Below, in pieces: positions 2,736 through 37,640 of a DNA stretch of 64,000 bases. Below the pieces are notes generated by a model. The model searched no databases. It saw only the letters and a program-made list of their open reading frames with translations, and was not told where the DNA came from. Each line of letters begins with the position of its first letter. Positions within the stretch are counted from its first letter, which is position 1. The stretch lies in the NCBI GenBank assembly GCA_024137785.1, contig JAHRHZ010000115.1:701579-765578 (forward strand). The letters are read 5' to 3'. The DNA comes from Ginglymostoma cirratum. Its lineage: Eukaryota. The position numbers and the translations under genes are program-made.

Positions 2736-4162
2736 ATTTCATTAGAAAATAGTTCTGTTGTCAGGGGAAACAACAAGTTATTCGTAGAGAAAATGTGTTT
2801 TAATGAATTAAGAAAATTCAATGATGGTTAATATAAGATAATCATTTAATGTGAGTGAGCTGATATCGAGCCGTAGTTTCAGAAGAAGCTGTAAATCCAC
2901 TGTCACTGGATTTCAACCTGTACATAGAAATTTAATATTTGATTAGGTGCCTCAGACATGAGAGCCCTTACTAAATTGTTACAGTCAGAACGAACACTTC
3001 AGTAACAAAAGTCGACTGCAGGGGTTTTAATAAAAAGTGTTCACTGTAAGTGATAGCCTAACGAATAGCATCGTGATAAAAAGACAGGATCAGGAAAAGG
3101 GCACTCAGCCCCTCGAGCTGTTGCACCACTTAATTAGGTTGTGTTGGATATATGACTTAACGGTATAGGCCCGCCTTTGGCCAAAAACCTTGTAACAAAT
3201 TTAATTAACAAAGAAAGACTGTCCCAGATTCAATTATTCGTCTGCACATAACAAAGGGAGACATCATTTATGGAAGACATTTTGTAAGGTTTCAAGGTAA
3301 CACAATGAGGCTGTAATTAAATAGTCATGAAAATAAAATTTAATCTCTGGCAATTTCCATTTGAAACATCCCAATCAAATGAGTCAGATCTCTTTAATTT
3401 AACATTATATTTATTTATTCCATACAATATAGCGTTTGATTGCATTGAAAATAAAATGAGCAAACCTTCATTCCCATTACATGATGACGAAATCGTTCTG
3501 TCAGTTCAGTGAAAACATAGTCAAAACACAGAAAACGAACACTTTCAGCACGTCAGCCGTGTGTGGACACACAGCGAGTACATCAAATATGTTTCTATTC
3601 TTCCAGTGGTTATTTGATTCTCTAGACGGATGTGGGTTGTCAGAATTCGTACATCTCCTTGAGAAGTCAGTAGTCATCAGCCTACGTGAGTTGCTGAGAT
3701 TCATATGGCATAAGAATTCCATGGCAGGTTTAGAAAGTGCATTCCATGGCAGTGATCCAGTAAAAGTAACGAGCCAGTGAAATAGTTGCATTTCAAGATC
3801 GAGTGTGATCTGGAGGAAAATTTTCATGGGAAGCAATTACCATGCATGTGAGCCCTTGTCTAAAGAAGGTTCCATTTTTGGAATGTGCTGCCGAAGGAAA
3901 GTGTGAACCTACAAATTAGAAGCTAAAGAAGGCATCTCGTACCCTAAAGAATGTTCTTCCATTCATGAGATCACCATAAGTCTTGCTGTTCTTTGCTCTT
4001 TCCAACACGCGACAAAATTTTGCCCGACTGTGAATTGTTCATTGTTACAACTATTATATTGTAAATTTTAGCAGAAACCATTAGCAGCTGAGGATACATT
4101 TGAGTAACTAATAAGGTCAAATTATCAGAGTCTAACTTGTTCAATCGTCCATTCTTCCCTAG

Positions 4163-4462
4163 TGACAACATCTTCTCCCATACTTTATGGCCTGGTCTCC
4201 TCCTGTCAGCAACACAACACCGATGGTTCTGTGATCTTTGGTTGCTTGGCAATGGGCTATTCCCCTGACGTCACTAAGGTGACCTGGAAGAAAGGTGGGA
4301 AGCCGATCTCGACTGGATTGAAGACTTACCCATCAGTGAGAAACAAGAAGGGAACTTACACCCTGAGCAGCCAGTTAACCGTGACTGAGTCAGAAGTGGA
4401 ATGCAGGAAAATCTACTGTGAAGTTCAACACGAAGGGTCAGAGAAGAGCGTTGGAATGCCAT
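4163..4462 (+). CDS. IGHM: IgM heavy chain Cmu1 exon (copy 1)
   Basis: ccctAG acceptor, T|GTAAGT phase-1 donor; C1-set domain [44 protein letters not shown] typical of shark mu CH1. Confidence 0.95.
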
Positions 4463-4509
4463 GTAAGTGTTGTGGGGACTGAGATAAACAGAAAACCTCT
4501 GATTAACAT

Positions 4510-7150
4510 GATGTGTGCTGCACAGAAAAGGCCCTTAGGACCACGCTATCCACGCCTATCAATAACAAACACGTAACTGATCCAATTTAATGTGCCAGCA
4601 CTTGGTCCATTGTCTTGTATTACTTGCCTTCGCACGTATACATCCAAATTCTTCTTACATATTGTGAGGGATTCAGCCTATACACGACTTACAAACGCTG
4701 ATTTCCAGATTTGCACCACCCTGCTTCCCTGACATCCACTCTAAACTTTGTGACCTTTCGTTAGCCCTATTTCTCTTAGACATTGATCCCTCCATCAAGG
4801 GGAAAGGTTTTTTTTCCTGCTTATCCTGCCTATGCCCTCCACATTTCCAGATATCTCAATCACGTTCTCCCTCAAACTCTTCTGCACTAAGGAAAACCCC
4901 AGGCTGTGTAATCTCATTTCGTAAGTAAACCTTCCAGTCCAAGCAAAATCCTGATAAATCTCGCCTGTGCCCTCTTCAGTGTAAGCACATTCCTCTGATA
5001 ATGTGGATTCGTGATTAGCACACAATACTATCAATAGGGTTTTATTAAGTCCCAGCATTATTTCCCTGCTATTAAATCCAATGCCACTGCTAATAAAGAC
5101 TAATGTCCCACACAACTTCTTAACCTATTTGTTCACCTGTGACAGAAAATTAACGGATCACAGAGCATGCACACAAGAGATCCTCAGTGCTGTCAAGGCT
5201 TCCAATATTCAAATCCTTGTGTTATCTTCCGTGCAAATGGATCACTTTACACTTATCCAGAATCATTTCTATTTGCAGCTTGTCAGCGCATGTAGCCAAC
5301 AGTTCAAGATCCTCCTGCGACCTATAACTATCATGCTCACTACTGACCAACTCGACAATTTTCATTTCGTCTCTGAACTTACTGGTCAACTTTCCAATAT
5401 TCAAGTCTAAATCAACACTGATGCCTGCAGACCAGCACTAGATGAACACTTCCAATCACACAAACACCGCAAGACCATTATCCTTGTCTCCATGCCACTC
5501 AGCCAGTTCTGGATTCAATTCTTTCAACTAACTCCGATCCCGTTGGCTCTTATCTTTGTTATCATCTGCAAACCTGGTTAACTCTTCCAAAAACACTATT
5601 AAATGGTTCACATATAACTTCCCCTCAATAAAACCACTTCAGAATTTTTGATTGAACCTCCAAATGAAAACTAATTGTGTTTCACAATGGTTCCAACAGT
5701 TTCCCAATTACTTGACAAGCCTGTGCTTTCAATGTTTATCCCTTCCCTCCGCATGCATAACTAGACCACATAGCTGACCTACAGTCATTTGGCACAGACA
5801 CTATGGCCAGACAGGAATTCTAAACTATTTTAAATTACCCAACTATTTCATCCTGTGCTTCGCTGAACAGCTTGGGATACATTTCATTCGCCCTGGAAAC
5901 TTCACTACTTGTATTCCAGCAGGATAACACAGAATATCTCAGCATCTATTCTAATTACTTAAATTCAATCACAGCACTTCACAATGATTCCTATACCCAC
6001 ATTGTCCTTCGTACGAGTGAACGCTGACGCAATGTATTCATTTTGAACAAAAGCTAAATCCTCTGACTTCACACCAATAATATCATACAGAAATATAATG
6101 GGGGTTGCTATTTCCCGAGTTATCCTTTTATTATGATTGAATTTGGAATGTTCTTTTATAGGTTCTTTCATTTTGACTTTCATTATTCTTTCGTGGTACT
6201 TTTTGTTTTCCCGTTTTCTCTTTTGTCAAAATCCTCCTTGCACTTTCTGTACACTTTGAGAATTTCTATTGTTTTGAGTCTTCAGAACATAACATAAGTA
6301 TTCCATTTTTCCCTTTGTCTAACCCTGCATGTCCTTTGATGTCCAGAGCTCGGTACGTTTTTGTCCCATACTGTGGATTCATCGGAACACATCGTCCTTA
6401 TATTTTTCCTGTTCTTTCTTGAATGTGCCCTATTGCTCCAACTTAGGTTTACATTCCAGTTCTGTCAAATCATTCCTGACCTTATTAAAATTGACTTTCC
6501 CCATTTCAGGACTTTGGTGCAGGCCCACTCCTAGCCCTTTCCAGTACAATCTTGAATCTAGCAGATTTATTATCTCTGCCTGCAAAATGCTCCACCATTC
6601 ATATTTTAACCATTTGTTCACCTTCATTACATAAAGTAAGTCCATGTTCACCTCTCTCTTGCAAGGCGTGCATTTGAAATGTCTCTATTAAATATATTCT
6701 CTATTTTTCTTATTTAAAAAAAATCTCTTTGGAACATTTTTAGAATTCTGCTCCGTCTAACCCTTTGACAATTTGAATACCCGAGCCGAAATTGAGGAAT
6801 TAAAATCAGCTTCAATCGTTCCCCTATTAATTTACAGTTCTTTGAAATGTGCCTATGTCGCTGCACTTCTCGATCTCTTGAAGCGATAGAGGGGTCTATA
6901 GAACTCTTCCAGTCGTATGTTTGCTTTATTTTGGTTTTTAAGTACTGTTCACTTGAGGAAGTATCTGTGATTTAGTCCTTCCTTACAACCTGAAATACCG
7001 TGATCAGTATTGCAACAGAACCATGGCCCATTTTATACCTTTCTCTGTCTCGCCGGACAATCTGGAATTATGAGCTTCCAATCCTGCCCCTCTCTCAAAG
7101 TATTTCCACGATATCAATTGCACCATTTCCTTAATTATGCCCTCAACGCA
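4510..7150 (-). mobile_element. Old, degraded CR1-like LINE in the Cmu1-Cmu2 intron
   Basis: Reverse-strand CR1 ORF2 remnants (e.g. WADKLQ..DKCKVIHL, 5222-5404 ORF; FNKVRNDL near 6430-6651) and a CR1-type 3' tail near 4510; similar to 46800-48330. Confidence 0.65.
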
Positions 7151-7457
7151 CGTGTCTTATTTGCCAGCCTCCTTTCATTAAAAAGAATAACATCCAACAT
7201 TGTTAACTCCCTTTTGGTTTAATTGGCCTATAATTTCTATGCCTTCTTTACGCCGTTGCTGTCCTTTCTAATTTTGGCATTTAACATCATCCTGCTGATC
7301 TTTCTGTGTCGATCACAGCTTCTCTACCATTCTGCACATTATACTCTTTGTAATACCGAAGTTAGTGTCAATTAACAGCAATTAATATTGATATATAACA
7401 GCTAATGGTATTCGTTATCAAATCCGTCAGCTAAATTATACAATGTGTTCCTTTAAG

Positions 7458-7769
7458 GTCCAATTATTGTGCATCCAACTCTTCTCCTAACTGTGAGTTC
7501 CAGCGAAGAAATTACAAACAGCAAATTTGCAACCATCGTCTGTTCAATCATCGATTTCCAACCAAAGTCAATCTCAGTGACTTGGTTGAAGAATGGACAA
7601 TCCGTGGATTCTGGCTTCTTCACCTCTCCTGCGTATGAAACGAACAAGAACTTCTCAGTGACCAGTTGGCTGAGAGTCCCTTATAGTGAATGGTTCAACA
7701 GTGCAGTCTATACTTGCCAGGTCACCCATGAAGGGCTCATTCAAAGTCGAAACATCACCGGATTCCAGG
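7458..7769 (+). CDS. IGHM: IgM heavy chain Cmu2 exon (copy 1)
   Basis: tttaAG acceptor, G|GTAAG donor, phase 1; [54 protein letters not shown]. Confidence 0.95.
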
Positions 7770-8019
7770 GTAAGAGATACATACTAAGAGAAATACAAAT
7801 CATTCTGAACGCGATGTAAATCAAATACGCTAATTGATCAGGTTTGGTAAACGACAGAGAACAATTTCTAATTTACCGTCAATCCATGAATATATCATTT
7901 CCGTGTTAGTGTTATGTCAGCGTTGCTTGTAATTCAGATCTGAAAAAAAAACACACACACTTCCCTCTATGTTGAAGGCATGTGGACAGTTGGTTGGATT
8001 TGGTTGTTGACTGAACGTA

Positions 8020-8458
8020 CTTGGAGAGGGAGTCGGAGTGCAGAATCCATTACTGGCATGGCCCCAATGATGAGGGTTTTCGGGTTCGAGGAGGGATCTT
8101 TTTGAAACTGAGAAAACCCTGAGAGATCGAGACAGAGTGGATGTGGAGAAGATGTTTTCACCATAAGGCGAGACTAGGACCCAAGGGCAGAGAGGCAGAG
8201 TCAAAGGGAGAATCATTTAGAAATGAGATTAAGAGGACATTCTTCAGCAAGAAAGTGATGAATCTGTGGATTTCATTGCTTCAGAGGGCTGTGTAAGCCA
8301 TGTCATTGAATGTATTTAATGCAAAGATAGATAGGCTGATGCTTAGTCTGGGGCGAAGGTGTGTGTATAGGTTGAGAAACATATCAGCTGTGACCGAATG
8401 GCGGAGCAAACTTGATTGGCAGAATCGCCCGATTCTGCTCCTATATCTTATGATCTTG
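8020..8458 (+). mobile_element. CR1-like LINE 3' fragment, shared with copy 2 (35665-35960)
   Basis: GACAGAGTGGATGTGGAGAAGATGTTT..TTCTTCAG..CAGAGGGCTGT and tail CTGCTCCTATATCTTATGATCTT. Confidence 0.75.
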
Positions 8459-8550
8459 TGGTCTTCAGATGACATCGTAAAAATATGCAGTGGCGCCTAT
8501 TTGAGTATAAAACAGAACACATTCAATACTTTGTTCCAAACTCCGGAATT

Positions 8551-9850
8551 ATCTGAGAAAACAAGGTGTAGAGCTAGATGAACACAGCAGGTCAGGCAGC
8601 ATCAGAGCAGCAGGAAAGCTGACCCTTCTTCAGAAATGGGGGAGCGGAAGGGGACTCTGAAATAAATAAAGAGGGTGGGGAGGCGGATGGAAGGTAGATA
8701 AAGGAACAGGTACGTGGACAGGAGACGGACAGGTCAAGGAGGGGGGGATGGAGACAATAGAGGCGAGTGTAGGTGGGGAGTTAGGCTGAGGCTTGGTCAG
8801 TCAAGGGAAGACTGGCAGGTCAAGGAGGCGGAGAAGAGGCTGGTAGATAGAAGGTGGGGGTGGGGCTTGCTCAGTGAGGTGGGAGGGGCGGATAGGTTGG
8901 AGAAAAGACGGACAGATCAAGGAGGACGAGATGGGCTGGTTTTGGGATGAGGTCGGGAATGGGGAGATTTTGAAGCTTGTGAAGTCCACGTTGAGATAAT
9001 TGGGCTGCAGGGATCCTAAGACAAATATGAGGTGCTGTTCCTGCAATCTTCGGGTGGCATCGTTGTAGCACTGGTGTAGGCCCAGGATGGATATATCGTC
9101 CAAGGTGTGGGAGGGGGAGTTGAAGTGTTTCTCGACTGGGAGGTGCAGTCGTTTGTCACGAACCAAGCGTGGATGTTCCACAAAGCAATCTCCAAGCCCG
9201 GTACCCCCGATGTAGAGGAGGCCACACCAGGAACAACGGATACAATATACCACATTAGCAGATATGCAGGTGAACATCTGTTTAATGTGGAAGGTTTTCT
9301 TGGGGCCTGGGATGAGGGAGAGGGGGGAGGTGTAGGAGCAGGCGTAGCACTGCCTATGGTTGCAGGGAAAATTTCCAGGAGTGGTAGGGCTAGTGGGGAG
9401 TGTGGAGCGGACAAGGGAGTCACGGAGAGAGCGGTCCGAGGGAAGGCAGATAAGGTGAGGGAGGGAAAAATGTCTTTTGGAGTTGTGTCAGATTGCAGGT
9501 GGTGGAAGTGGCAGAGGATGTCGCGTTGAATCTGGAGGTTGGTGGGGTGGTATGTGAGGACAAGGAGTATTCTGTCTTTGTTGTTATTGTGGAGAGGGGG
9601 TGTGAGGGATGAGTTGTGGGAAATGCGAGAGATGTGGTCGAGGGCATTTTCGACCACTGTGACGGGCAAGTTGCGGTCCTTGAAAAACGAGGACATCTGG
9701 GATGTCCAGGAGTGGAATGCCTCACCTCGGGAGCAGTTGCGGCGGGGGCGAATGAATTGGGAATAGGGGATGGCATCTTGCAGGAAGGTGGGTGAGAGGA
9801 AGTGTATTCTAGGAAGCTATGAGCGTCGGTAGGCTTGAAATAGGTATCTG
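8551..9850 (-). mobile_element. 5'-truncated Penelope-like retroelement (GIY-YIG endonuclease region), frameshifted
   Basis: ORFs 9016-9696 and 8801-9277: VVENALDHISR..LVLTYHP..; NVVYCIRCSWCGLLYIGGT..EQHLIFVLGSLQPNYLN; purine-rich 3' region and terminal repeat at left. Confidence 0.9.
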
Positions 9851-10974
9851 TTGGCTTAGATTTTGTATGGTACGGGCCTCCTCAACTTCAATCAAGGCAC
9901 CAAATCATAGAACAAATGAGTATCATATTTGATTAACAGTGATAAACGTGATCTAATTCAGCTTCGCTTAGACGTTCTCTGTAAATGGTGTATGTGGCAA
10001 GAAAATAAATTTTGGTGGGAATGCTACAGTAGGGATGAATGAATTGGAATTAGAGCCAGAATGTTTCAACTTGGTTTCAGGATGGAAATGTTCCAACAGT
10101 GAGTCGTGGAAGTCTAAAGTTCGCTTGGCCAAACTTCCATTGTGTTTCTGCATCGATTTAAAACGTTCCTACTTGATTTTTTTTATTTGATTCTGCGAGT
10201 AAACTAAAAATTGCAGATTGATAAGTAATGAGAAAATAGAGGTCAGTCGTTTAAAGAAAAACTGAAGTGAAAGGCTTGAGTTGAAGAGTGTCCTACTCTA
10301 TTTCTAATGCTGTGGTCAGAGTATTATTTCCATATCTACTTCAAATTCATGAGGAATAATATCTCATACCGTATTTCAGAGAACAATCTCACATACATAA
10401 TGCAAATTATTTTCAATCATATTAAATCACATTGAACAGAATTTCCGTCACCGTTCACCGCTCCAGTAACGCAGTAAAATCTTTGCAAATACATTAGGAA
10501 TCAGAGAATAATTACGTTTGATTACAATTTTCCCGAAATTCGGGATTTGGGATGGCACTCAGCATGACCAACATCATTTGTATGCATGGTTCATGAATGT
10601 TGAAATGAAGTCATTATATTGAGCGCAGATTAGTTTTGTCACAAGTATCAATAGAAGGACTTGACTGAGAGAAGAATTCTGAAGAGAAAGTTACTCCATG
10701 TCTAACATCATGGTACCTTTGATTATTTTACTTTCTTCATAATATTCACATGCTGCAAAGCCAGTGTTCCTTAAATATAATTACACAAGTCATGTTTTAG
10801 GTAATCACGAATGATTTCACAAATCAAAATATATGAACAATTTATCGTTTCAGGAAAAGTTGAAAATTGCCATCTCGAAGGTCGTTTCTTTATCTCGTAA
10901 GGAAATAGCCTGAAGGCGGTGCTTTGATCGCAAAGAGGCATTTTTCATTGGCTGTGATTTTTACTTCATTGCAG

Positions 10975-11280
10975 TTACCGAGTGCCGTGATTACACAGTT
11001 AAAATACTACCGCCGCCAATTGAACAGGTCTTACTGGAGGCGACGGTGACGTTGACCTGTGTTGTATCCAGTCTTCCTTTTGGAGTCAACGTCACCTGGA
11101 CACAGGAAAATAAGCCTCTGAAATCAGAGATTGCTGACCAAGCCGGAGAGGATCCCGACAGCGTGATCAGCAAATTGGACATTTCTACTGAAGCCTGGCT
11201 GAGTGGGGTTTCTTTCTACTGCGTGGTGAACCATCAGCATCTACCGACTCCTCTCAGAGACTCCATCCACAAGGAGAAAC
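10975..11280 (+). CDS. IGHM: IgM heavy chain Cmu3 exon (copy 1)
   Basis: ttgcAG acceptor, C|GTGAGT donor; [55 protein letters not shown]. Confidence 0.95.
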
Positions 11281-11743
11281 GTGAGTGGTGAGATCAAAGC
11301 ACTAACTCTATTCTTGTGCTTGTTTCCAAGGCATACGTAATTTTGCTCCACTCACATCGATAGTATTCTTTGATTTATAATGAACTAATACCTTTGGAAG
11401 CTTTCACGATGCATTTCCGGGCAGGATAGCTCAGTATGTGATTAAGAAAAAGTTGGATTCAAGGATAATGTATGATGATTTAGTCACATACAGTAGCAAT
11501 AAGCTTGGTTTGTCACGTAAACGTCAGCAATGACGAATGGACAGAAGTTTCTGGTTTTGGGCTGGAAAAATGCGGCAACTTACCTTTTTCTTCTAATAAA
11601 TAAAATGGATACCACTCTGCTCCTTTGAAAACTAAAGTGGATAAATCCCAAATTAAAAATGGAATATTTTAATATTTAGTGAAATATCAATGTTGAACTT
11701 GTATTTTTAAAAATATTTTATGTTTGTTTCAAATATTCTGCAG

Positions 11744-12135
11744 CAATAAATCCACTGGAGCCATCAGTGTCTGTCCTCTTGCCACCGACGGAAGAAGTCT
11801 CCACTCAGAGGTTTGTCTCCCTCACTTGTTTCGTGAGAGGTTTCTCCCCGCGTGAGATCTTCGTCAAGTGGACAAACAATGATAAGCCGGTGAATCCCAG
11901 TAATTACAAGAACACCGAGGTGACGGCACAGAGCGACAACGCCTCCTTTTTCATGTACAGCCTGTTATCCATTGCTGCGGAGGAGTGGGCCAGCGGTGCT
12001 TCTTACTCCTGTGTGGTGGGACATGAAGCGATTCCATTGAAGATCATTAACAGAACAGTTGACAAATCCAGCGGTAAACCAAGTTTTGTAAACATTTCAC
12101 TTGCACTGATGGACACCATTAATTCATGCCAATGA
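11744..12135 (+). CDS. IGHM: IgM heavy chain Cmu4 exon with secretory tailpiece (copy 1)
   Basis: ctgcAG acceptor; [57 protein letters not shown]; internal donor AGCG|GTAAAC at 12073/12074 for the membrane form. Confidence 0.97.
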
Positions 12136-12162
12136 AAATTACAAGGTTACGTTTAAGAATTC

Positions 12163-12168
12163 AATAAA
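12163..12168 (+). terminator. Secretory-form polyadenylation signal
   Basis: AATAAA 28 nt after the tailpiece stop; conserved in copy 2 (32387-32392, - strand). Confidence 0.8.
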
Positions 12169-13334
12169 AGTACTAATGACTTTGTTCCTCCAATTGTGAT
12201 TTAAATACACAACGCTTAATTAATTGTGTTTGACACTTTTACTAATATTTCATCCATTCAGTTCAAGTTGATTATTAACAGACCCAGTACTCATGTCTTA
12301 TACAGTTAATGCACCCTACTCAGACGCACTCTTATTCGGAGATAGAGTAAAGCTCACGCATTGCCGCATTCCACAAAGTACCTTCTCCATCTCAAATCCC
12401 ACTCAGATTAAATTTGAGAATGTCCAATCTTTTGACAAATTCACACCCCGCATTTTGATCTAGCTGTTCCTAATTCCCAAAGTGCCTAATTCTTCAAAAT
12501 TTATGTTTGCTTTAAAATGCTGCTTTTCACGAATTGGCAGCGTAAACCTAAGAGACTTTATGAATTATTTTTGATGGTAACATACCAACAGGAAAGACAA
12601 GCTAAGGGCAACAAATATCAACGACGACAGAGCAACTTGATTTTAACTTTTGTTCCTAAGGAACTGCCAGGTATCTTGCACCAAGGCACTAATTGAGAGT
12701 ATTTATCTTCACTTCTACACTAGAGAGGACAAAAAGAAAAATTGTTGTTTTTCAGCAGAGGGAGACGAGAGGGAACGTTTAAGCGACTGTGCTCTTGTTT
12801 CCCGTACAGATTTTTTTAACTGTAGAGGCCATTTGTAATGTGAACTAGTTGCGTTTTCTTACTGTCCGAAGATTTAAAATGTCCACGCGAAATTATAATT
12901 TTGAAGCATGTTGGACACGCGTGTCACCGTTAATCACCTCTTAACATTGAATTCCCATAATCAAAACCAAAGCTGATGATTGCATTACCCCAATTCGTAC
13001 TCCACAGTTTTGTCTCAGTTCTGTGGAACTCATGGGATCAATTCTGATTTCCGAACGTCTGTCGTCATTTAGTTTCAGGTACAGTACACTTATTGATATT
13101 TCCGAAAACATATTCAGAAATATTTTTATCCATCTCTGGGGCAGTGGCTGATTGAACTCAGGCCCCTTGTCTCATAGACAGAAATTCTATCACTGCAACA
13201 AAAGAGTCTTTCGCAAAGCAATAATCTTTCCACAACGACGAGAAATGCTCCCCACACCATTCGGGTCAGACCTCATTATTGGCAGTTGATTAAAATTAAA
13301 ACCACGACGAAAATGAGCATGGTTTAGTAAGACA

Positions 13335-14360
13335 GCAGAAACACACACAGATACAGACACGTGCTCACAAACACACACATAAAAACACAAATACGCAGAA
13401 TCTCACGTAAAGACACGTACTTGCGCACACAGCAATGTGCATACAAATAAGCCATCACACTAGCATACACGCACGGATACACATATGCATATGATCATGA
13501 ACATCCACGTAAATAACTGCATACAAAAGCAGATACACGGAAACACACACACACACACAAAAGCGAGCGTGCGCGCACACACACGTACACACACCACAGA
13601 CACAAGTGAACAGTGGTACATACACATAACCATGAAAAATATGGACACAAGTTAACACTCAAATGGAGACGAATGTATGTACATTCGTTCACCATAAAAC
13701 CTACTGACATACATGCATAAATGCACAGATACAGCATCTGAAAACGTCATTCCAAATGTATGCTCACAGAGACACGGTTGAGCACAGAGATAAATATTAA
13801 ATTCATCACTATCCCATTTTCACAAACATAGAGATATGACGAGAAAGGCAGATTAATAGTTTATTTTTAAATGCCACTCATTTGCACATATACACTGTCA
13901 TGCTTACATACAACTTCAGAGTCTGACATGCAGACACGCAACTGTGCAGATCAATAAACAGTGGAGCATTTACAAGGCAAGGGTTAGGATACAAGCATCC
14001 GCAAACATCCGCGCGCAATAACACAACCAAACATATCAAGGATTGTTTATGTGCACAGGCACACAAAAAGGCATCACATAAATATAGCCATCCATCAAAA
14101 CAGAAAGTTTCATACTTACATAATATATACATATGGAGCACAAACTTGAAAATAACCTAACGTATGTACGATCGGAAATAGATACATAAACGCATATTTT
14201 AGATGGCACTAATGCAAAACAAACGCATTCGCAATGACATTAAAAGATAAAGACAGGCATCAACGAATGAAGTGACATGTTAACACAATGTGAAATTGTG
14301 AAATTAACAACATCTGCATACACAATCACAGCCATGTAAATGAACGCACCAGCACTAAAG
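13335..14360 (+). repeat. CA-rich low-complexity tract between secretory polyA and TM1
   Basis: Dense imperfect (CA)n/ACAC/ACAT including a short pure (AC)n run near 13543; mirrored at 30150-31240. Confidence 0.8.
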
Positions 14361-15044
14361 GAACATGGATATGTTTATTTACGTCCAAACTCCAACATGG
14401 ACGCTGCGAAGTAAGAGAAACTCGTGAACAGATTCACAAACATTAAAGGAAAATCATAGACACCAAGCTATAGACAAAAATAAATGAAGGTGGACGCGCA
14501 CAAAAATTTACTCCCAAAGTATACTGATGCCACAAACAAAAATATGAAGCAGTGTCTTTACTGTGCATCTGAATTATGTTCATGATTTGCCAAGCAATTG
14601 TTCACGAATAATTGAAGAAGACGAGTAATCATATTTTAACTCTTATTCAAGGATGGCCAAAATTTTCAACTAAAGAGCTGTCACAGCCTATATTTAAAAT
14701 ATAATTATGTTATAATAATAATAACTAATAATAATGATAATCGTTCCCAATGAGTGTTCCGCAAATGCTAACAATGATAACATCACACAATAATTGATTA
14801 AATGACGAAGTAATTCAAAATGTTCTGACACACATAATAAAGGAAGACTGTGTGCAGTTAGTGTTAGCAATTTATTGCTGACAGACACGAACGCAATCAT
14901 AGATCCAGGTAGGGAGTCAAATTTGAGAACGTCCCTACAGCTTGAAAAAAATGTTATGGTCCATGATTACATGATTTATACATAGGCTTATCAGTCTGGA
15001 TCGACAAACAACGCAAATGCATTCTCTCGGTTTTATATTCATAG

Positions 15045-15172
15045 ATTCAATAGATTACCCTTGGATTGAAGATTATGAGGATGATAACAGCAACATCGGG
15101 ACGACTGCTTCCACATTCATTACCCTGTTCTTCCTGAGTATTTTCTACAGCGCTGCCGTCACTCTGGTGAAG
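15045..15172 (+). CDS. IGHM: IgM TM1 exon (copy 1)
   Basis: catAG acceptor, AAG|GTGGGA donor; (D)SIDYPWIEDYEDDNSNIGTTASTFITLFFLSIFYSAAVTLVK: acidic spacer plus antigen-receptor TM motif with YS. Confidence 0.93.
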
Positions 15173-15308
15173 GTGGGAATAATTAAATAATTCACGCTTC
15201 AAACAGAAAAATATGGTTTGTCAAATCTCTAATGTCGTTGAATAAAAATTAAACCTAAATGCTCCTGATCATAAACATCTGGATCATTATTTTATCGCTT
15301 TTTTCCAG

Positions 15309-15317
15309 GTCACGTGA
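15309..15317 (+). CDS. IGHM: IgM TM2 exon, coding part (V-T-stop)
   Basis: ttttccAG|GTC ACG TGA; aligned with GTC AAG TGA in copy 2. Confidence 0.88.
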   Translation, partial: VT

Positions 15318-15735: not shown

Positions 15736-16720
15736 TCATTAATGAATATTCACAAACCTCGAGTTGGCTTAATTCTTTCTTCAAAGCCCATCAGTAATAA
15801 TATATTTTCCCCTGTTTATGTGGCCCACTCCCTTCCCACCCAAATGCTTTTCACGTCTTATAACTGGGGGTGTTTCACTGTCATTTCGGTTAATGCTGCG
15901 ACACCTTGCAGTCCACCATTGTATATCAATCTTTAACTCAGTCTGCCTAATGTAACACTCCAGAGGCAGAATGACTAGAGCGCAAGGAAACCCTCGATGT
16001 TTCCTTTTATGCACAGGGGGTCACGGCCTCGTGTCAAGTATGTTTAAAAAATAAGATCTTTGTTCTACAAGAAGCCTATAGAAGGCAGGAAATAGAGTTA
16101 TAAATCTCACTCTGCTCTGTCTAAAATAAAACTGCTCCCTACATTGGTACAGCGTGGGTTAATAAAGGATGAACCTCCACTTAAAATGCCAAATTAAATA
16201 TTCATCAGCCGAAACTGTCAACGTTCAGTCAGGAATAGAGACACAGCCGTGGGCAAACCAAGGGCTGACTCTTCGTCCTGAAGTTGTTTTTTTACATAAG
16301 TCTCATGAAGCACAAATGTTTGAAACTATTTGAAACACAGCTCCTTCCAGATGCCAAGGAAGGAGAATAAAAACTGCCTGATACAGGGTTATCAGTGAAT
16401 AGCACACTTCACAATTGTAAATCAGAGTTCAATGTCGATCAGACAAGGCAGAAATGAAAAATACTGGAAATATTCAGCATTCAGGCCTGTGTAGCGCAGG
16501 ACAGAATTCTACAGAAATAATAACAGAAATAATAGTTTGTATCCTATCTGGTCTAGAGATGCAGAAGCCTTCTCCACGAGTTATAGTTTATTTATTCTGG
16601 GAGCTATATATGTAATATGAATCCGTTACGTGAAAAAAATCTGTAGACATTTGAAATCACAAATCGACTAAGACTTGCCTCGGCCAAATTTGATATCTTA
16701 TTCAGCCTGGAACACCCAGT

Positions 16721-26880: not shown

Positions 26881-29298
26881 CTTCTGCCACAATGGGTTTT
26901 GCACATAAATTATTCAATTGGAAACACGAATAATTTACTAGTGATAGGTAATTGCTGGAAATAAAAAGAAATGGGTGACTTGCCGATGGGAAGTGAAAGT
27001 TACAACGTGAAGAAGGACACTTCTAGATATAAAAGGTAATAAAAGGAAAACTTCCTCCATTCTTCATGCTCAGGTCTTACCTGGATGCTGTACCATCAGG
27101 GTATTTCCTGTTTTGTTTTATTAACTCAAGTTCCTCTCACCCGCTGTTTCATACTTGCCAACCATTTGTTAACGGTTTTTTGCCTTTTCAGGTTGCAGGT
27201 TGCCTTATCCTGTGCATTCTCAGACTTCAATATTTGGAGTCCTTGCTGTTTCAACCTGTGCCTCGGCCTATAAAACACAGTTGCAGAAGAGCGTTAATAA
27301 AAGAACTTAAGGTAAAATACTGAGATATTTAGAGAAAGCGTAGAACTTCAACAGACAGGTTGCAGGAACGGACGTCAAGTGGAAATCCAGTATTTCTAGC
27401 ACTTCTGACCTCTGCCTGCCCTGATCAACATCAACTTCTGGCGTACCATTTTTGAGAGCTGTTATTCATTGATATCCTTGTGAAAGATATATCTCAGTCT
27501 CATGGAGGTGTGACGTGGTTCTTTCTTTTGTAATGGATTCAGAAGAACATCTAATGATAAATGTGTAAATCCAAAGACGTGCAGAACAGAGGATCCTCCA
27601 TGGATACGTGCACAAATCAGGAAATATACTATAAGGTCTCGAGAGAAGGACAAATCAACATTATTTCATAAATGGCACTGCAGAGAACAATTACAAAGGA
27701 ATCGTGTTAAACTGAAATAGAACAGTCGCTTTACTCACCTGGAAAATTGCGTCCAGTTTCAGATGTTACATCCTTGTAAGAATACAAAGTCAGGAGAGAG
27801 GGTAAATGGCTGATTGTTTTATTTTTGAGAATTCACACGCGTGTAATTGTTGTATGTATTTAAGTCGACCGTTGATCTCTTGTTGAAGCATAACACAAGG
27901 ATTAAATGGTGAATTAAGATAAATTACAAGTTTGACAAGTTCTTATCAAATAATTAACCACCATTGGATACTCCAGGCTGACCAGGATATCAGATTTCAC
28001 CGAGGCAAATCTTAATTAATGAGTGAAATGCCTACAGCTGTTTTCATAAGGGATTCATATGTATCTCCCAGAATAAATACACTATAACTTCCGGAGAGAG
28101 CTTCAGCATCTGAGAACAGGTTCTATTTTTGGTGCTGAATTCTGTCTTGTGCCACATAGGACCCAATGGCTGAATATTCCCAGTAATTTTGATCTCTGCC
28201 TTGCCTAATGGACATCGACGTCTGGTTTATAATTTTGAGGGTTGCTATTCAGTGATATCCGTGTATCAGATAGACCATGGGTTCATTTCTTGGAATTTTG
28301 ACAGCTGTGGTGTGTCAAGTGGATCTCGGGATTTATGCTCCATGAGGCTCATGTGTGAGAAAAACTCCATTTTTAAGAATCAGCCCTTGGTTGGTTCACG
28401 TGTTGTGTCGGTATTCCGGTCTGAACGTTGACATTTTTGGCTGATGAATGTTTAGTTGGTCATTGTAGGTGGAGATTTGCCCATTAGGAACCCAGGCTCC
28501 ACCGACATTAGGAGTATTTTTGTTTTAGACAGAGTAAGCTGTCTGCCTTTTGTAGGCTTCTGGTGGAAAAATGCTCGTGATTTTTGTAATCAGTTGACCC
28601 GAGAAAGTGAACCTTTGCGCGTATGAGGAATCATTAGAAGGACTCCTTGCGCTCTAATCATTGTGCATCTGGAGTACCGTATTCCAATTTGGCCTCAAGG
28701 TAGCTAAGCATTAACCCAAATGGCTGGATGAAACACAATCTGACGTAAGAGAAAAACATTTGACTGGGAACAGAGTGGGGCGTGTAAACTTGGAAAAATG
28801 TATCATTACTGATGGGCCTTGAAGAAAGAATTAAGCGAACTCAAGGTTCATACATATTCATTCAAGGTTTATTAACCATTTCAGACAACACTGTTAACGA
28901 AGAGTTTATGTTAATGTTAACAGAAGTGAATATGACTGGGTTGCCACATTAAAATTAGAGCGCATGCGCTCTGAGCTGTAAATTTTAAGTACATTTGTAA
29001 AAGTCACCAGAAAGAGAAAATACTGCCTCAACATAAAGGGTTGGCAGCAATTCTGAATATGAACACCACTAACAACAACAGACTTCAAACAATTGGGAAG
29101 GGACAAATTATTGCATCATAATTATATCAACGATACCAAAAAAAAGTAAAATGGAAAAACCGTCAATTATTTTCCCTGTTACATATTCTTAAACTGAAGT
29201 TATTTCACTGCTAGAGTCAATGACAGGACAGATTGTTGATTTGGAATTCAGAGGCTTCGACAACCAGATGAGGAGAATCTGCGGGGTCCAAAATTCAT

Positions 29299-29307
29299 TC
29301 ACTTGAC
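29299..29307 (-). CDS. IGHM: IgM TM2 exon, coding part (copy 2, V-K-stop)
   Basis: ttttccAG|GTC AAG TGA on the minus strand. Confidence 0.85.
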   Translation of the reverse strand, partial: VK

Positions 29308-29444
29308 CTGGAAAAGAGGGATAAAGTGACAACGCAGACAGTTATGATCGAGGCATTCAGATTTTAATTTTTATTCCATGACACTTAAAAACTTCACAAA
29401 TCATATTCGTGTGTTTGAATTACGAATGATTTAACTATTCCCAC

Positions 29445-29572
29445 CTTCACCAAAGTGACGGCAGCGCTATAGGTAATACCCTGGAAGAAGAAGATAATGA
29501 ATGTAGAAGCAATTGCCCAGATGTTGCCGTTATCATCCTCATAGTCTTCAATCCAAGTGCTATTTATCAAGT
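29445..29572 (-). CDS. IGHM: IgM TM1 exon (copy 2)
   Basis: cgtAG acceptor, AAG|GTGGGA donor, 128 bp like copy 1; (D)LINSTWIEDYEDDNGNIWAIASTFIIFFFQGITYSAAVTLVK. Confidence 0.88.
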
Positions 29573-30149
29573 CTACGAACGTAAAGCCGAGAAAAAGTAC
29601 TTAGATTGATTATTGATCCAGTCTGATATATTGTATCTAAAATAATATAATCGGGGCCTGCACATCTTCTTCAAGTCGTTAGATTGCTCTCAAATTTGAC
29701 TCTATCTGTAACGATCATTGCGTTAGTGACTCTCAACAATAATTTGCTGATACTAACTACACATGTTCTTCCTTTGTTATCCATGCTGGATCATTTTGAT
29801 GTATTTCATCAGTTAGTCTATTATTGGAAAATATTACTATTGTTATCGTACGAGGAATACTCATTGGGAACGATTACATTAATTGTGTCATTACATTTTC
29901 AATATAAGCTGTGACAGCTGTTTAGTTAAAAAAGAATTATCGTCATCACTGGATAAGAGTTGAAATTTGATTGTTTATTTTCTTCATTTGTATAGGACCA
30001 ATTGCTTGGCAAATCATGAACATAAATTAGATCCACAGTAAGAACGTTTCTTCATATTCTTATCAAAAGGACCTCCATTGGAATAATATTTTGTGCTTGT
30101 GGCCTTGGTTTATTTTTGTCTACAGCTTGGTGTGTATATTTTTCCTTCA

Positions 30150-31240
30150 ATGTTTGTGTATGTGGTTATGGGTGCCTCTTAGTGTGCACGTGTCTATGTT
30201 GGAGTTTGTTCATGAGTAAACATATTCGTGTTCCTGTAGTGCTAGTGTATTCATTTACATGATTGCGCTCGTGTACGTAATTTTTGTTCGTTTCACATTG
30301 CGCAAGCATCATTGTGTTAATATGTCACTTCATTCGCTGATGCCTCTGTTTATCTTTTAATATTTTTGACGTGTTTTTTATGTGTTAGTGCCATCTAAAA
30401 TATGTGATTGTGTGTCTATTTCAGATCCTACCTACGTAAGGTTATTTTCATGTTCGTGGTTCATGAATGTATGCTAGTGTGAAACTTCATGTTTTGATGG
30501 ATGGTAATATATACGTAATTTTGACTGTTTGACAATGTGTGACAATGTACCCTAAACCATCTCCTGAGATGTTTGCTTATACTATTGTTTGTGGATGGCT
30601 GCTGCCGCTTGTGTGATCGTCCTTTTTTTTGTAAATGCCCCACTATTTGTTGATCTATGCACTTGCGTCTCTGCATGTAAGACTCCGAAATTGTGCGCAT
30701 GCATTACCATGTATGTGTACTAATCAACGTGGTTTAAAAATAAATAATAAAGCTGCCTCTGTCCTCATATGTCTATTTCTGTGAAAGTGGGATTAAAAAA
30801 AATGAGATGAACGTTTATCTCTGTGCTCATATGTGCCTGTGTGAGTGTACATGCGGGAGGACATTTCTTGGATATTGTATGTGTGTGTTTATTCATTATT
30901 ACTGTGTATGAATATACATGTATTCATGTCCATTTGTGTGTTAATATGTGAATGTTTTTCAGTTATATCTGGGTAACCTGTTCATTTGAGTATGTATTTC
31001 TTTCTGTGTTAGTACGTTTTTGTGAGTATTTAAATGAGTGTTCATATATCATATACATGTATGCGTCTGTACATGCGTGCGTGCGTGACGGCTTATTTGT
31101 ACGTACATTCATGTGTGCGCATACACATCGTCCCTTTAGGTGAGAACCTATACGTGTGTGTCTTTATGTGTGCGTATGTGAGCATGTATCTGTATTTGCG
31201 TGTGTTTTGCTCTTATACCAGACTGTGTTCGTTTATGTTT
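30150..31240 (-). repeat. TG-rich tract (CA-rich on the copy-2 sense strand), homolog of 13335-14360
   Basis: Imperfect TG/GT repeats flanked by sequence alignable to the copy-1 intron. Confidence 0.75.
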
Positions 31241-32398
31241 TCGAAACTTAATCGATTGCCAAATATTAGGTCTGACCCTAATGGTGCAGGTAACATTTCT
31301 CGCCGTCATGGAGAGGTTAACGTTTTGTGAATGACTCTTTCATTACTATGATAGAATTTCCGCCTCCGACACAGGACGCCCAAGTTCAATGCCCCACTAC
31401 TGCAGAGATGTGTAATAACATTCCAGAGTATGTTGATTAGAAAACTTCTGCAAGTGTTCTGTATGTGAAACAAAATGGCGTCAGGTGTTCGAAAAGCAGA
31501 ATTGATCCGAGGTCCTCCAGAAAACGGAGTCAACACTGTGGAATACATATTGGAATGATGCAATCATCAATTTAATTTTGGATTATGGGGAATTGTTAAC
31601 AGATGATTAACGGGACAAGTGTGTCCAACATTCTTCAAAGGAATTACTTTGCATGGAAATTTTGAATCTTCGGACAATAAGCAAGAAGCTGATAGTTTCT
31701 GTTAACAACTGGGTCACATTACAGAGGGCCTCTAACGTGAAAATTCTGCACGCGGAGAAAGAGCACAATCTGTTAATCATTCCCATCTCCTCTCCCTCTG
31801 CTTAATGATAAAAAATTCTTTTAGCTCTCTTTTAGTTGTGGAAATGAAGATACATTCTGTCAATCGATGTACTGCTGCGAAATCTCTAGCACTTCCCCAG
31901 AAACAAAGGCTAAATTCACGTTAGTCTGCATTCTATGCGATTGGCGCACTCAGTAATTCTTTTCTGTTAGTGTTCCCAATCAAAAAATAATTTTAAAAGT
32001 CTCTCAAGTTTATGTTCCGATTTGGTGCAATGTGGCATTTTAAAGCTGACTTGAATTTTATAGGAATAAGCAATTGGGAAATCAGAAGCACTGAGATCAA
32101 AATTCGTGGTGTTCATTTGTCATGAAATGGGCCTTGTCAGATTTCATCTCAGTGGGATTTAAGATGGAGAAGGTAGGTTGCGGAATCCTGCAATAAGTGA
32201 GCTTTACTCTGTCTCTGATCCAGGGTGCATGTGAGCAGGGAGCATCAACTGCATAAAACTCAAGTCCTAGACCCGATAATAACCAACTTTAACTGGAAGG
32301 ATGGAATGTTAGTAAAAGTGCGAAACACAATTACTTAAACAGTTGTGTATTTAAATCACAATTGGAAGAAACAAAACACTATTATTTTTATTGAATTC

Positions 32399-32811
32399 TT
32401 AAATGTAAGCCTGAGATTTGCATTGGCACAAAATAATTGTTTCCATCAGTGCAATTGAAATATTCACAAAACTTGGTTTACCGCTGAATTTATCAACCGT
32501 TCTGTTGATGATCTTCAATGGAATCGCTTCATGTCCCACTACACAGGAGTAAGAAGCACCGCTGGCCCACTCCTCCGCTGCAATGGGTAACAGGCTGTAC
32601 ATGAAGAAGGAGGTGTTGTCGCTCTCCGCCATCATCTCAGTACTTTTGTAGTTACTAGGATTCACCGGCTTGTCGTTGCTGGTCCAGTTGACGAAGATCT
32701 CACTGGGGGTGAAACCTCTCACTAAACAGGTGAGCGAGAGAAAGCTCTGAGCGGAGACTTCATCGGCCGGTGGCAGGAGGACAGACACTGATGGCTCTAC
32801 CGGATTTATCA
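32399..32811 (-). CDS. IGHM: IgM Cmu4 exon with extended secretory tail (copy 2; headless gene, possibly a pseudogene)
   Basis: ctgcAG acceptor; [57 protein letters not shown]; internal donor AGCG|GTAAAC intact; AATAAA at 32387-32392. Confidence 0.9.
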
Positions 32812-33099
32812 CTGCAGAATATTGTAAGAAAAGATAATTTTTTTAAAAGTCCATATTCAATATTAGGATTTCACTAAATATTAAAATATTCAATTTTACA
32901 TTGGGATTTATTTACTTTCATTTTCTAAAGAAGCAGAATAGCAACCATTCTGTTCAATAAACAAAGTGTTTAGTTCGAAAATCATTTCGAGCCATGTTTC
33001 CAGCCCAGAACGAGGAAATTCTGTCCATTTGTCATTTCTGTTGTTTACATCACAAACCCTCAGGTTTCTTCCCACCTTATTTGAATTATAATAGAATAT

Positions 33100-33198
33100 C
33101 GATTTATGAAGAGGGATCCCGACCCGAAACGTCCAGTTTCCTAGTGCTAAGATACTGCCTGGCCCGCTGTGTTCCTCCAGTTCCACGCTGTGTTATCC
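33100..33198 (+). mobile_element. Short PLE terminal-repeat fragment in the copy-2 Cmu3-Cmu4 intron
   Basis: ATGAAGAGGGATCCCGACCCGAAACGTC..GCCTGGCCCGCTGTGTTCCTCCAG..TGTTATC; absent from the homologous copy-1 intron (~11465). Confidence 0.75.
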
Positions 33199-33359
33199 TT
33201 CAATCCATCTTTTTCTTAATCAGCTACTCAGCTATCCGGCCGTGAAATGCATCATTAATGCTCCGAACGATGTTAGTTCATTACCAATCAAACATGCTTT
33301 TAATATAACTGGATCTAAATTAGACATGGGAAAATTGGTGCTGTAATCTCACCACTCAC

Positions 33360-33668
33360 CTTCCTCTTTGTGAATGAAGGCTGTCAGAGGAGTCGGTAGA
33401 TCCTGATGGCTCACTGCGCAGTAGAACTTAACCCCACGCAGCCAGGCTTCAGTGGAAATATCTAATTTGCCGATTAAGCTATTGGGATGTTGTTCGATCT
33501 GGTCAGCAATCTCTGATTTCAGAGTCTTCTTTCCTTGTGTCCAGTTGACGCTGTCACCAAAAGGAAGATTGGACATAACACAGGTTAATGTCATCGACGT
33601 CTCCAGTAAGACCTGCTCCACTGGCGGCGGTAGTATTTTAACTGTGTAATCGCGGCACTCCGAAATGA
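33360..33668 (-). CDS. IGHM: IgM Cmu3 exon (copy 2)
   Basis: aatAG acceptor, G|GTGAGT donor; [50 protein letters not shown]; open frame. Confidence 0.9.
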
Positions 33669-34879
33669 CTATTAAGTAGAAATCAGAATCAATGAAAAAT
33701 GTCTTTTTAGGATCAAAACACCAGTCTTCAGGCTATTTCCTCACAAGGTGAAGGAATCACCTTCGAGATGGCAACTTCCAAGTATTCCTGAAACGATGCT
33801 TATTATTGTTCATATATTTTGATTTGTGAAATCGTTCGTGATTACCTATAAAATGACCTGTCTAATTTTTCCTCAAGAACACTGGTTTCGCAGCAAGTGA
33901 AACCTGTGAAAAAAAATTCAATGCTGCCGTGACGTAACCCATGAAATAAACTTCCTTTCAGAGTTCTTCTCTCACTTAAGGCCATCCATTGATACTTGTG
34001 ACAAAACTAATCTCCGCTCAGTGTAACGGCTTCGTTTCAACATTGATGAACCATACTTGCAAATGTCGCTGGTCACGCTGAGTGCCAAGTCAAATTACGA
34101 ATTCCGGGCAAACTGTAATCAAACGTAATTATTCTCTTATTCCTTATGTATTCACAGACCTCTTCGTGGGTTAAAGGAACGGTGAACGGCCACAGAAAAT
34201 CTGTTCAATGTGATTAATCGTGATCGAAAATAAGTTGCATTATTGGTATGAGATCATTCTGTAAAATATGTCATGCGATATTATTTCTCATGTGCTGGAT
34301 TTGGAGTAGTTCTGAAGACAAGACACTGAACACTGCATTGAAAATAAGGGACGGCACTCATCACCTCACGCCTTTCCCTCCATTCAGTTAGTTAATGGCT
34401 GGTCTCTACCTTCACTTTATTTACCAATCTTCAATTTTTTAATTTCTTCACAGAACAAAAAGAAATCAAGCAGGAGCATTTTAAATTCATGTACAAACTC
34501 AACGGAAGTTTGCGTTAGTGAAATTCAGACTTGCATTACTCACTGTGTGAACATCTCCGTGCTGAACTCAGGCTGAAACAGCTTGTCTCTAACTCTGAGT
34601 TCATTCATCATTATTGTGGCATTCCCATTAGCATTTATTCTCTTGCCACATACAGAAATTACATAGAACGTCCTAAAGAGGCTCGATTAGATCACGTTTA
34701 TATTTGCTAATCAAATATGATACCCGCTTGGTCTGTGGTCTGGTGTCATGATTGAAATTGAAGAGCCCTGAAATATAAAAGCTATGTCGTACCACGCCCA
34801 AAGCCAACAGATAATTCCTGAGCTTGGAGTGAAGTATTGAACGTGTTTTGTTTTATTTTCAAATTAGTTTATTTTATTT

Positions 34880-35616
34880 TACTGACAGAGGGGTCTTGGG
34901 GTCCAACAGAGGGATCTTGGGGTCCACCTCCATAGATACCTCAAAGTTGCTACCAAAGTTGATAGGGTTGTAAAGAAGGCGTACAGTGTGTTGGCTTTCA
35001 TTGGCAGGGGAATTGAGTTTAAGAGCTGTGAGGTTATGCTGCAGCTCTATAAAACCGTGGTTAGACCACACTTGGAAAATTGTGTTCAATTCTGGTCACC
35101 TTATTATAGGAAAGATGTGGAAGCTTTAGAGAGGGTGAGCAGATGTGGAAGCTTTAGAGAGCAGAGGAGATTTACCAGGATGCTGCGTGGACTGGAGGGT
35201 AGGTCTTATGAGGAAAGGCTGAGGGAGCTAGGGCTTTTTTCATTGGAGTGAAGAAGACGGCTTGATAGAGGCTTACCAGATGACGAAAGGCATAGATAGA
35301 GTGGACAGTCAGGGATCTTCTCCCAGGGCGGAAATGACTATTACGAGGGTGCATCATTTTAAGGTGATTGGAGGAAGGTATAGGGGAGATGTCAGAAGTA
35401 GGTTCTTTGCACAGAGAGTGGCGGGCGTGTGGAATGCGCTACCGGCAGTGATAGTGAAGTCAGATATTTTAGAGACTTTTAAGCGACTCTTGGATAGACA
35501 CTTGGAGGATAGTAAAATGTAGGGTATGCAGGGTAGATTGATCTTAGTAGGATAATAGGTCGGCACAACATCGTGGACCGACGGGCCTTTACTGTGCTGT
35601 ACTGTTCTATGTTCTA
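34880..35616 (+). mobile_element. CR1-like LINE 3' fragment specific to copy 2
   Basis: LAFIGRGIEFKS..LYKTVVRPHLENCVQFWSP; tail ACTGTTCTATGTTCTA; site empty in copy 1 (~8495). Confidence 0.9.
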
Positions 35617-35960
35617 AAAAAGAGTCCTGCATATTTCTACGATGTCACCTTCAGTCCACAAGGTCATAAGAATTAGGAGCAGGATCAGGTTATTCACCCA
35701 ATTAAGACTGTTCCACCATTCGATCATGGCTAATAAGCTTCGCAACCTCATTCTCCCGCCTTCTCCCCTGCTAAGCAAGAGCCCATCTATTTCTGTCTTC
35801 AGTACCCTCAAAGACTTTGCCTCCGCAGCCCTCTGTGGCAATGAGATCCACAGATCCACGGATACATCACTTTCTGGCTGAAGAAATTTCTCTTCATCTC
35901 CGTTCTAAATGGTCCTACATTTGACTCTGAGGCGGTGCTCTCGGGTCTTAGTTTCGCCTA

Positions 35961-36400
35961 CCTGCTGAGTTTCTTTAGAATTTTTTTGTTTTTATTTCGG
36001 GTTTTTAGCATTCGCTGTTTGTTGTTTCATTTTTTAAAAAGTCTCTATTCTCAGATGAAACAAAGTACGTTGTTCAGGGAGAAAAATGAATTTCCAACAA
36101 TTAGGCAGATTCAATGATACTTAATATCAGAGATTCATTGAATGTGAGTGACCTGATCTAGAGCCATAGTTTCAGAGTAACAGTAAATTCATTGTCATTG
36201 GAGTTCAACCTATTACCCAGAAATGTAACATTTGATTAGGTGCCTCAGAACTGAGAGCCCTGACCAAATTGTTACAATCAGAATAAACCTCTCAGTAACA
36301 AAAAGTAGACTGTAATTGTTCCAATAAAAAAAAAACTGTTCACCGCCAGCGATAGCCTAACGAATTGACACAATGATAGGAAGACAGAAGCAGGAGTAGG
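35961..36400 (+). other. Inverted remnant of the IgM J-Cmu1 intron (homolog of ~2675-3100)
   Basis: Colinear similarity in the + orientation, e.g. AATGTGAGTGA.CTGAT..GAGCC.TAGTTTCAGA, TTTGATTAGGTGCCTCAGA, GATAGCCTAACGAAT. Confidence 0.85.
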
Positions 36401-36424
36401 GTTAGGGTTACCGAAACCGAAACC
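36397..36424. repeat. Short telomere-like filler TAGGGTTAGGGTTA-CCGAAACCGAAACC at a rearrangement junction
   Basis: Read directly; lies where Ig-intron similarity stops and ZNF sequence starts. Confidence 0.6.
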
Positions 36425-36473
36425 AATCATTACCTCAGGATCGGACAGATATGCCCCATTTGCACAAACTGAA

Positions 36474-37640
<1,167 letters not shown>

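Follow-up and report, generated by a model that had tools for sequence, protein, structure and literature searches.

How can a chain of immunoglobulin M (IgM) constant exons keep its reading frames open when none of the gene's head exons is left upstream of it? The question is raised by copy 2, an IgM-like locus on the minus strand of a 64,000-nucleotide stretch of Ginglymostoma cirratum DNA (G000:C115:701579-765578 in the assembly), which is called the window throughout and which also holds an intact neighboring cluster, copy 1. Copy 2 runs from Cmu3 through Cmu4 and the secretory tail to the two transmembrane exons, TM1 and TM2. We consider it, with good though not complete confidence, to be a real feature of the genome and an ordinary young pseudogene of the IgM-cluster family: an old IgM cluster that would have kept Cmu3 to TM2 in frame and, once its lineage had separated from that of a related organism, B, would have lost V, D, J, Cmu1, and Cmu2.

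Retained exons and the two junctions

The features on which the analysis rests are as follows (window coordinates).

27972..35959, minus strand: all that remains of the body of copy 2, the homolog of copy 1 8166-16711
33360..33668, minus strand: open Cmu3 exon of copy 2; the acceptor has moved to an in-frame TAG that lies 3 nt upstream of where the ancestral AG was lost
32399..32811, minus strand: Cmu4 and secretory tail of copy 2, open; internal membrane donor after 32482; AATAAA at 32392
29445..29572, minus strand: TM1 exon of copy 2, open; in the membrane helix, Leu is replaced by Gln, Ser by Gly, and Phe by Thr
29299..29307, minus strand: TM2 of copy 2 (Val-Lys-stop); AATAAA at 28873
35959..35962, no strand assigned: junction A, where the inverted intron piece meets the Cmu2-Cmu3 intron
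35962..36401, plus strand: 440 bp from the J-Cmu1 intron of copy 2 itself, inverted; homolog of copy 1 2675-3101
36402..36412, plus strand: junction B filler TTAGGGTTACC, 11 nt, the first 9 nt extending a telomere repeat in register from native TAGGG
36413..37600, plus strand: degenerate C2H2 zinc-finger exon lacking its own upstream DNA, fused after the filler
4162..15316, plus strand: copy 1, Cmu1 to TM2, the intact neighbor, with V and J just upstream of the window (G000:C115:697455 and 698958)

Self-alignment of the window matched copy 2 to copy 1 in three blocks (copy 1 8166-8519, 9857-11468, and 11507-16711) at 72-76%, which bears out the reverse alignment back to about 8165 described in the first-pass annotation. 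The body is interrupted at about 34885-35616 by what we take, by recognition and without a repeat library, to be the tail of a younger long interspersed nuclear element (LINE). The 837 coding nucleotides contain zero stops and zero frameshifts, and Cmu3, Cmu4 with its tail, TM1, and TM2 are IgM-homologous with collinear introns, as in a member of the elasmobranch IgM heavy-chain clusters. The earlier statement that frame, splice sites, internal donor, and polyadenylation signals were all kept stands for the open exons, the internal donor, and both AATAAA signals, and falls for the rest. The ancestral Cmu3 acceptor (TTGCAG in three close paralogs) is lost, the AG before 33668 being a different one; because three of the four bases at the old site have changed, an old tandem-acceptor shift is the probable cause. 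The secretory stop (32422-32420) has mutated from TGA to TGC and is read through to a new stop at 32401-32399, so that the tail is longer by seven residues and its Cys is no longer penultimate, and the TM1 core reads IFFFQGITYS where TLFFLSIFYS is expected. Copy 2 thus combines retained, collinear introns with disabling lesions (the deleted head and the lost secretory stop), as an unprocessed pseudogene does. The leader, V, D, D, J, Cmu1, and Cmu2 that precede the constant exons of a functional IgM cluster are missing from it: as already reported for the remaining 28 kb of the window, V, J, Cmu1, and Cmu2 do not appear there, nor do they in the 130 kb that follow, which include stretches of N.

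The head-to-head junction with a 440-bp piece of the J-Cmu1 intron, placed earlier at about 35960, was likewise recovered: 35962-36401 matches copy 1 2675-3101 at 76%, in the sense opposite to the rest of copy 2. In comparison with B, for which three DNA runs (X2-X4) from three studies were used, this piece stands at 94.5%, the same level as the rest of copy 2, and it is therefore copy 2's own intron. At junction A, the end of a presumed short interspersed nuclear element (SINE) on the inverted piece adjoins a presumed old CR1-like tail in the Cmu2-Cmu3 intron, both recognized without a repeat library. The joint appears near-blunt, with microhomology of at most a few nucleotides as estimated from paralogs, since the exact value can be read only from the ancestral allele.

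At junction B, two paralogs read GAGTAGGG and then CA, the general form being CAGGA(G/A)TAGGG or a close variant, followed by CA; copy 2 reads GAGTAGGG, then TTAGGGTTACC, then the start of the zinc-finger homology. The TTAGGG of the filler is non-templated, in register with the native bases, and missing at the empty site, the B match stopping at 36401. The filler is the sole run of two telomere units within the window, and the chance of a 9-mer of telomere repeat within an 11-nt filler, computed after the fact, is about 1e-4. A telomere-repeat insertion is thereby suggested, nine nucleotides being suggestive only, and the in-register pattern makes telomerase its putative maker. Typical interstitial telomere arrays are much longer than the nine nucleotides added here, and the hexamer after the filler (CCGAAA) is doubled too, which makes slippage a possible alternative source.

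Read in gene direction, the product runs from the zinc-finger side to 3101, back to 2675, and then from 8166 onward, an order for which one small inverted segment between two deletions suffices. The likely route is thus a single germline deletion-inversion-deletion event. One deletion would have taken the head of the gene up to copy 1 position 2674 together with the DNA up to the zinc-finger exon, and the other the interval 3102-8165; the break after TAGGG would have been extended with a telomere-like repeat and then end-joined. Observed directly are the four exons that remain, the inverted intron piece of 440 bp, the filler, the zinc-finger exon without its head, and, in the relative, the unjoined ends of junction B. 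The remnant, having neither promoter nor leader, would likely yield no protein and drift, its frames still being intact probably since too little time has elapsed.

Age of the break and condition of the exons

The open frames seem at odds with the diverged introns only as long as the latter are taken to date the loss. Intron p-distances are about 0.17-0.33 among the close paralogs and 0.21-0.27 for copy 2, whose nearest relative is the broken locus C115:428k in three of four blocks; for the inverted piece it is copy 1. An intron divergence of 22-26% is best read as reflecting the old cluster duplication common to all IgM paralogs and not as the date of beheading; since it equals the general distance between paralogs, the conflict dissolves. 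The break itself can be placed with B, which differs from organism A, that of run X1 below, at the orthologous locus by 424 of 7746 aligned letters (5.5%). A B contig (1010 and 1008 nt in X2 and X3) matches 36123-36401 at about 94.5% and then continues with about 735 unlike letters, and a B zinc-finger contig of 880 nt begins to match at 36413, preceded by 119 unlike letters. Because the intron piece and the zinc-finger exon each continue into other sequence in B, junction B is absent there and hence younger than the split. This supports the recently beheaded gene that the first-pass annotation had offered as one of two possibilities, the relative being about 5.5% away. A 194-nt B contig that ceases to match at 35960 is a weak sign that junction A is absent as well. 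An intact gene would be expected in B, which may hold two related copies of the ortholog, given two B contigs at many listed sites. Protein searches with Cmu3 (8 of 50 candidates) and Cmu4 (8 of 11 candidates) revealed no close ortholog.

The ratio of nonsynonymous to synonymous substitution rates (omega) was estimated with a codon model of our own (six loci, fixed tree, 271 codons, the IgM1gj-like locus left out). It amounts to 0.59 on the copy 2 branch, 0.29 in the background, and 0.49 for the broken C115:428k copy. The copy 2 value differs from the background (p=0.009), and purifying selection is therefore not at the level of the intact copies; the test that had been proposed for these exons thus returned a raised ratio, although not one near 1 (p=0.043). 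An omega below 1 fits a long working life followed by drift, and would suit this history without proving present neutrality. Private amino-acid changes in the 271 codons of four close copies number 36 in copy 2 and 10, 17, and 23 in the others (10-17 in intact copies). The exon comparison with B draws on the 40 rows listed out of 875, a selection that is skewed toward sites at which the B contigs agree and that favors conserved sites; among these rows there are at least nine exon differences, of which six are nonsynonymous, each departing from the usual paralog residue. Within 228 nt of Cmu4, at least seven changes appear among those listed, where 6.2 are expected under neutrality and 2.7 at an omega of 0.21 (P=0.02; 72% nonsynonymous sites assumed), which suggests that Cmu4 of copy 2 has been changing at about the neutral rate since the split from B. 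In a neutral simulation with 0, 0.05, or 0.1 indels per substitution, all frames remained open in 43, 21, and 9% of cases, respectively, at 0.028 substitutions/site, and in 13, 1.3, and 0.2% at 0.07 substitutions/site. Open frames in 9-43% of cases at the lower value are therefore compatible with a young death.

A search of sequencing runs listed no RNA run that contains the locus. Expression was assessed in run X1 (organism A), whose kind is unrecorded and which is called RNA-like only because of a splice joint; over the IgM part it is identical to the window (0 differences). Its contigs give neither level nor strand, and 451 further joints exist beyond those listed. Among the listed joints, the linking letters of the Cmu3-Cmu4 splice joint are those of copy 1. 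Among the listed contigs, copy 2 is represented only by unspliced ones with 0 differences (33253-33679, 34015-34623, 35759-35965, and 36053-36209), the first of which crosses the Cmu3 donor unspliced; one X13 contig lies at 35640-35752. These data are a hint, not proof, that copy 2 is near silent. The junction has created a donor-like site, CAG/GTAGGC, before which we found no in-frame leader: the frames are closed within 9 codons (24 in phase 0), and the needed phase 1 within 5. In a V-less expressed immunoglobulin, a leader exon is spliced in frame to the first constant exon, an arrangement that is lacking at the junction donor, to which this test was limited, and the first Met of the copy 2 Cmu3 is residue 25. 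An open 272-aa open reading frame (ORF) with nine C2H2 fingers lies upstream on the same strand (49135-49950, minus) and is a possible source of read-through RNA. The zinc-finger contigs of X1 contain T>C differences, which could reflect editing of minus-strand RNA; allele or paralog differences explain them equally well. With the raised omega, the near-neutral Cmu4, the missing in-frame leader, and listed contigs that are all unspliced, the other earlier possibility, a retained Fc-only module, is left unsupported.

Several observations weigh against a young and ordinary pseudogene. The copy 2 contigs of X1 and X13, although of low depth, might represent genuine transcripts; omega is below 1 for the whole of copy 2, at the p-value given above, and reaches only 0.37 for Cmu4 alone (p=0.017). 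The point estimate of omega implies a drift of about 0.07 substitutions/site, at which open frames are expected in only 0.2-13% of cases, and the amino-acid excess is somewhat above the prediction for a short decay time. The comparison with B covers the biased 40 of 875 rows only, the absence of junction A in B stands on five loose letters, and an intact gene in B, where the 735 unlike letters lie, is presumed. Furthermore, the B ortholog itself has a 3-nt deletion in Cmu4. Because of this deletion and the amino-acid excess, relaxation is possibly older than the beheading, and constraint on copy 2 may have eased before the split.

Alternative explanations

Four open exons with a usable in-frame acceptor, an internal donor, both polyadenylation signals, and an omega under 1 might instead belong to a spare Fc cassette. 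Somatic recombination between clusters, within the Cmu2-Cmu3 intron, would supply it with VDJ-Cmu1-Cmu2, or else read-through or trans-splicing would add an upstream exon. The 0-difference unspliced contigs in X1 and the open nine-finger ORF 13 kb upstream on the same strand agree with this, as does the report that nurse shark V regions are expressible with the C region of another cluster (PMC4279169). We nevertheless hold such a cassette to be very unlikely. The sole J-C intron homology is inverted, so that VDJ would end up on the zinc-finger side after a crossover at this place, and the Cmu2-Cmu3 introns are only 76% alike; the frames before the junction donor are closed, with no Met in Cmu3 before residue 25, and both the membrane helix and the tail have suffered damage. 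Among the loose ends listed in X1, the single Cmu2-Cmu3 one resembles a C282-type Cmu2 and not that of copy 1, and promoters lie at V segments only, according to the light-chain section of PMC5192425. It is conceivable, because copy 2 faces copy 1 tail to tail, that somatic inversion between the Cmu2-Cmu3 introns, or trans-splicing to 33668, swaps the copy 1 Fc for that of copy 2, but we give this exchange hardly any credence. If true, the VDJ-Cmu1-Cmu2 of copy 1 would be coupled to another Fc, whose tail is longer and whose membrane helix is changed, and copy 2 would act as a C-only acceptor when sharks switch between clusters, one step on the way to the arrangement with many C genes in bony vertebrates.

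An assembly artefact, with misjoins at 35960 and 36401-36413 and an intact gene elsewhere, is also quite improbable. None of the listed contigs spans either junction with 31 letters on each side; those of X1 cross junction A by 6 letters and reach just 12 letters left of the filler. Junction B is missing in the relative, repeats lie on both sides of junction A, and parts of the assembly hold N stretches. Against this, both junctions are without a gap, an X1 contig of depth 2.3 (36390-36607, with 8 differences in 218 letters) aligns across the entire filler, the inverted piece is as distant from B as the rest of copy 2, and the excess of amino-acid change in the exons is independent of the junctions. 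Genome searches with V, Cmu1, Cmu2, and intron also yielded no orphan head of matching lineage. The first-pass annotation had proposed a two-step route, in which 2675-8165 with Cmu1 and Cmu2 was inverted and later cut off. Of this proposal, the inversion of the 440-bp piece stands; nothing shows that Cmu1 and Cmu2 were inverted, and two steps are possible and unneeded. As far as can be judged from the alignments, one event and two give an identical product and are indistinguishable here. The lost segment might survive as the Cmu1-Cmu2 orphan at C102:1071344-1079899, which is homologous to 3638-7935 only and thus lies fully within the missing interval. However, the orphan is far more decayed (three stops in Cmu1, and gaps that break the frame at several points of the Cmu1 and Cmu2 projections, versus none in copy 2), its intron distances are longer with a nearest neighbor that is not shared, it touches neither breakpoint, and no inverted J-side DNA follows it. 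As two events are needed in place of one, we regard the two-step route as unlikely, and prefer a young pseudogene made in a single event.

Other IgM loci and known systems

The search for the missing head of copy 2 extended to the whole genome, where Cmu1, Cmu2, V, junction DNA, and adjoining intron retrieved only the C102, C127, and C115:77-89k fragments, none assignable to copy 2, so that the inverted Cmu1-Cmu2 piece sought since the first annotation was not recovered; two short matches at C115:820-821k fall in an apparent old repeat. The C102 fragment lies in the missing interval, yet it is too decayed and cannot be tied to copy 2; V, J, and Cmu3 were not found in the 110 kb around it. The C127 locus (G000:C127:1567040-1578560) keeps only the head of a cluster (a V carrying a stop, the D-J region, and the J-C intron) and breaks off ahead of Cmu1, with no match to a C exon in the 27 kb downstream; it overlaps the 440-bp piece but is 33% away from it. 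The third candidate was rejected because its V-J and Cmu1 follow the normal order and it retains a TM remnant of its own. This locus (G000:C115:77549-89248) has a germline-joined VDJ, a J donor with TT rather than GT, a 2-nt deletion in Cmu1, and a deletion ending inside TM1; canonical germline-joined IgM is absent from nurse shark according to PMC5192425.

At least 11 IgM-like loci are present in the genome, six apparently intact where readable and five broken, four of the latter by large losses, which is the usual death of IgM clusters in this genome. The broken loci are:

C115:428k: stops and frameshifts
C115:77-89k
C102: Cmu1-Cmu2 only
C127: head only
copy 2

With 5 of the 11 loci found being broken, annotation by domain count will overcount IgM genes. 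Zinc-finger genes are interspersed with the IgM loci (13 ORFs of three or more fingers in 485 kb). The Cmu1 of C282 is identical to nurse shark AAA50817.1 (100/100). A locus at G000:C101:7610000-7632000 contains V, Cmu1, Cmu3, Cmu4, and TM1 without a Cmu2 match and resembles a second three-domain IgM, although no joined VDJ motif was found there. In the C115:515k cluster, intact in other respects, the membrane helix at G000:C115:495770-495900 is altered (ASEFITLFFLSICDS): it contains two acidic residues and lacks Tyr. Copy 1, which is spliced in X1, ends in Val-Thr-stop rather than Val-Lys-stop (TM2, 15308-15316) and carries Gly in TM1 (15041-15174) where most paralogs have Trp. Its J-Cmu1 intron holds a 100-bp motif duplicated at 82% (1363-1465 and 2926-3028), of which one copy recurs in other clusters as well as at 36217-36302 of the inverted piece.

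A literature search for V-less shark IgM or for this locus returned reviews and unrelated loci only, which is no proof of its being unpublished. The nurse shark has 9-12 functional IgM genes and three pseudogenes (PMC5192425), and Groups 6-8 are minicluster pseudogenes (PMC2435157). Copy 2 is likewise a dead member of the V-D-D-J-Cmu cluster family, although the vh probe used for those groups would presumably miss a locus without V. Constant domains are missing both from copy 2 and from IgM1gj, which has three domains, no Cmu2, and a germline-joined VDJ (PMC5192425, PMC4279169), and whose layout resembles that at C130:2479-2495k; IgM1gj, however, retains leader, V, and Cmu1 and is expressed, whereas copy 2 is without all of these. 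Immunoglobulins consisting of the constant region alone are also represented by V-less IgW, with its leader spliced to C1, and by V-less secreted catfish IgD (PMC5192425). The former keeps its leader and arises by splicing and the latter is expressed, while copy 2 lacks a leader, and none of its listed contigs is a spliced transcript. As a V-less C region adjoining an active cluster, copy 2 may serve as a natural control for shark isotype switching.

Copy 2 appears to be a well-preserved case of the death of a shark antibody cluster by large rearrangement, with a possible telomere-repeat scar. Its structure resembles the deletion-inversion-deletion (delINVdel) variants in PMC6286558 in the small inverted segment, the two flanking deletions, the repeats at the breakpoints, and the letters inserted at the junction; unlike those cases, the event is fixed or segregating in the shark germline. 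Telomere-repeat insertions at repaired double-strand breaks show, as their reported signature, repeats in register with native bases (1-8 nucleotides; PMC2246262), which is matched at junction B by the native TAGGG and accompanied by a flanking deletion.

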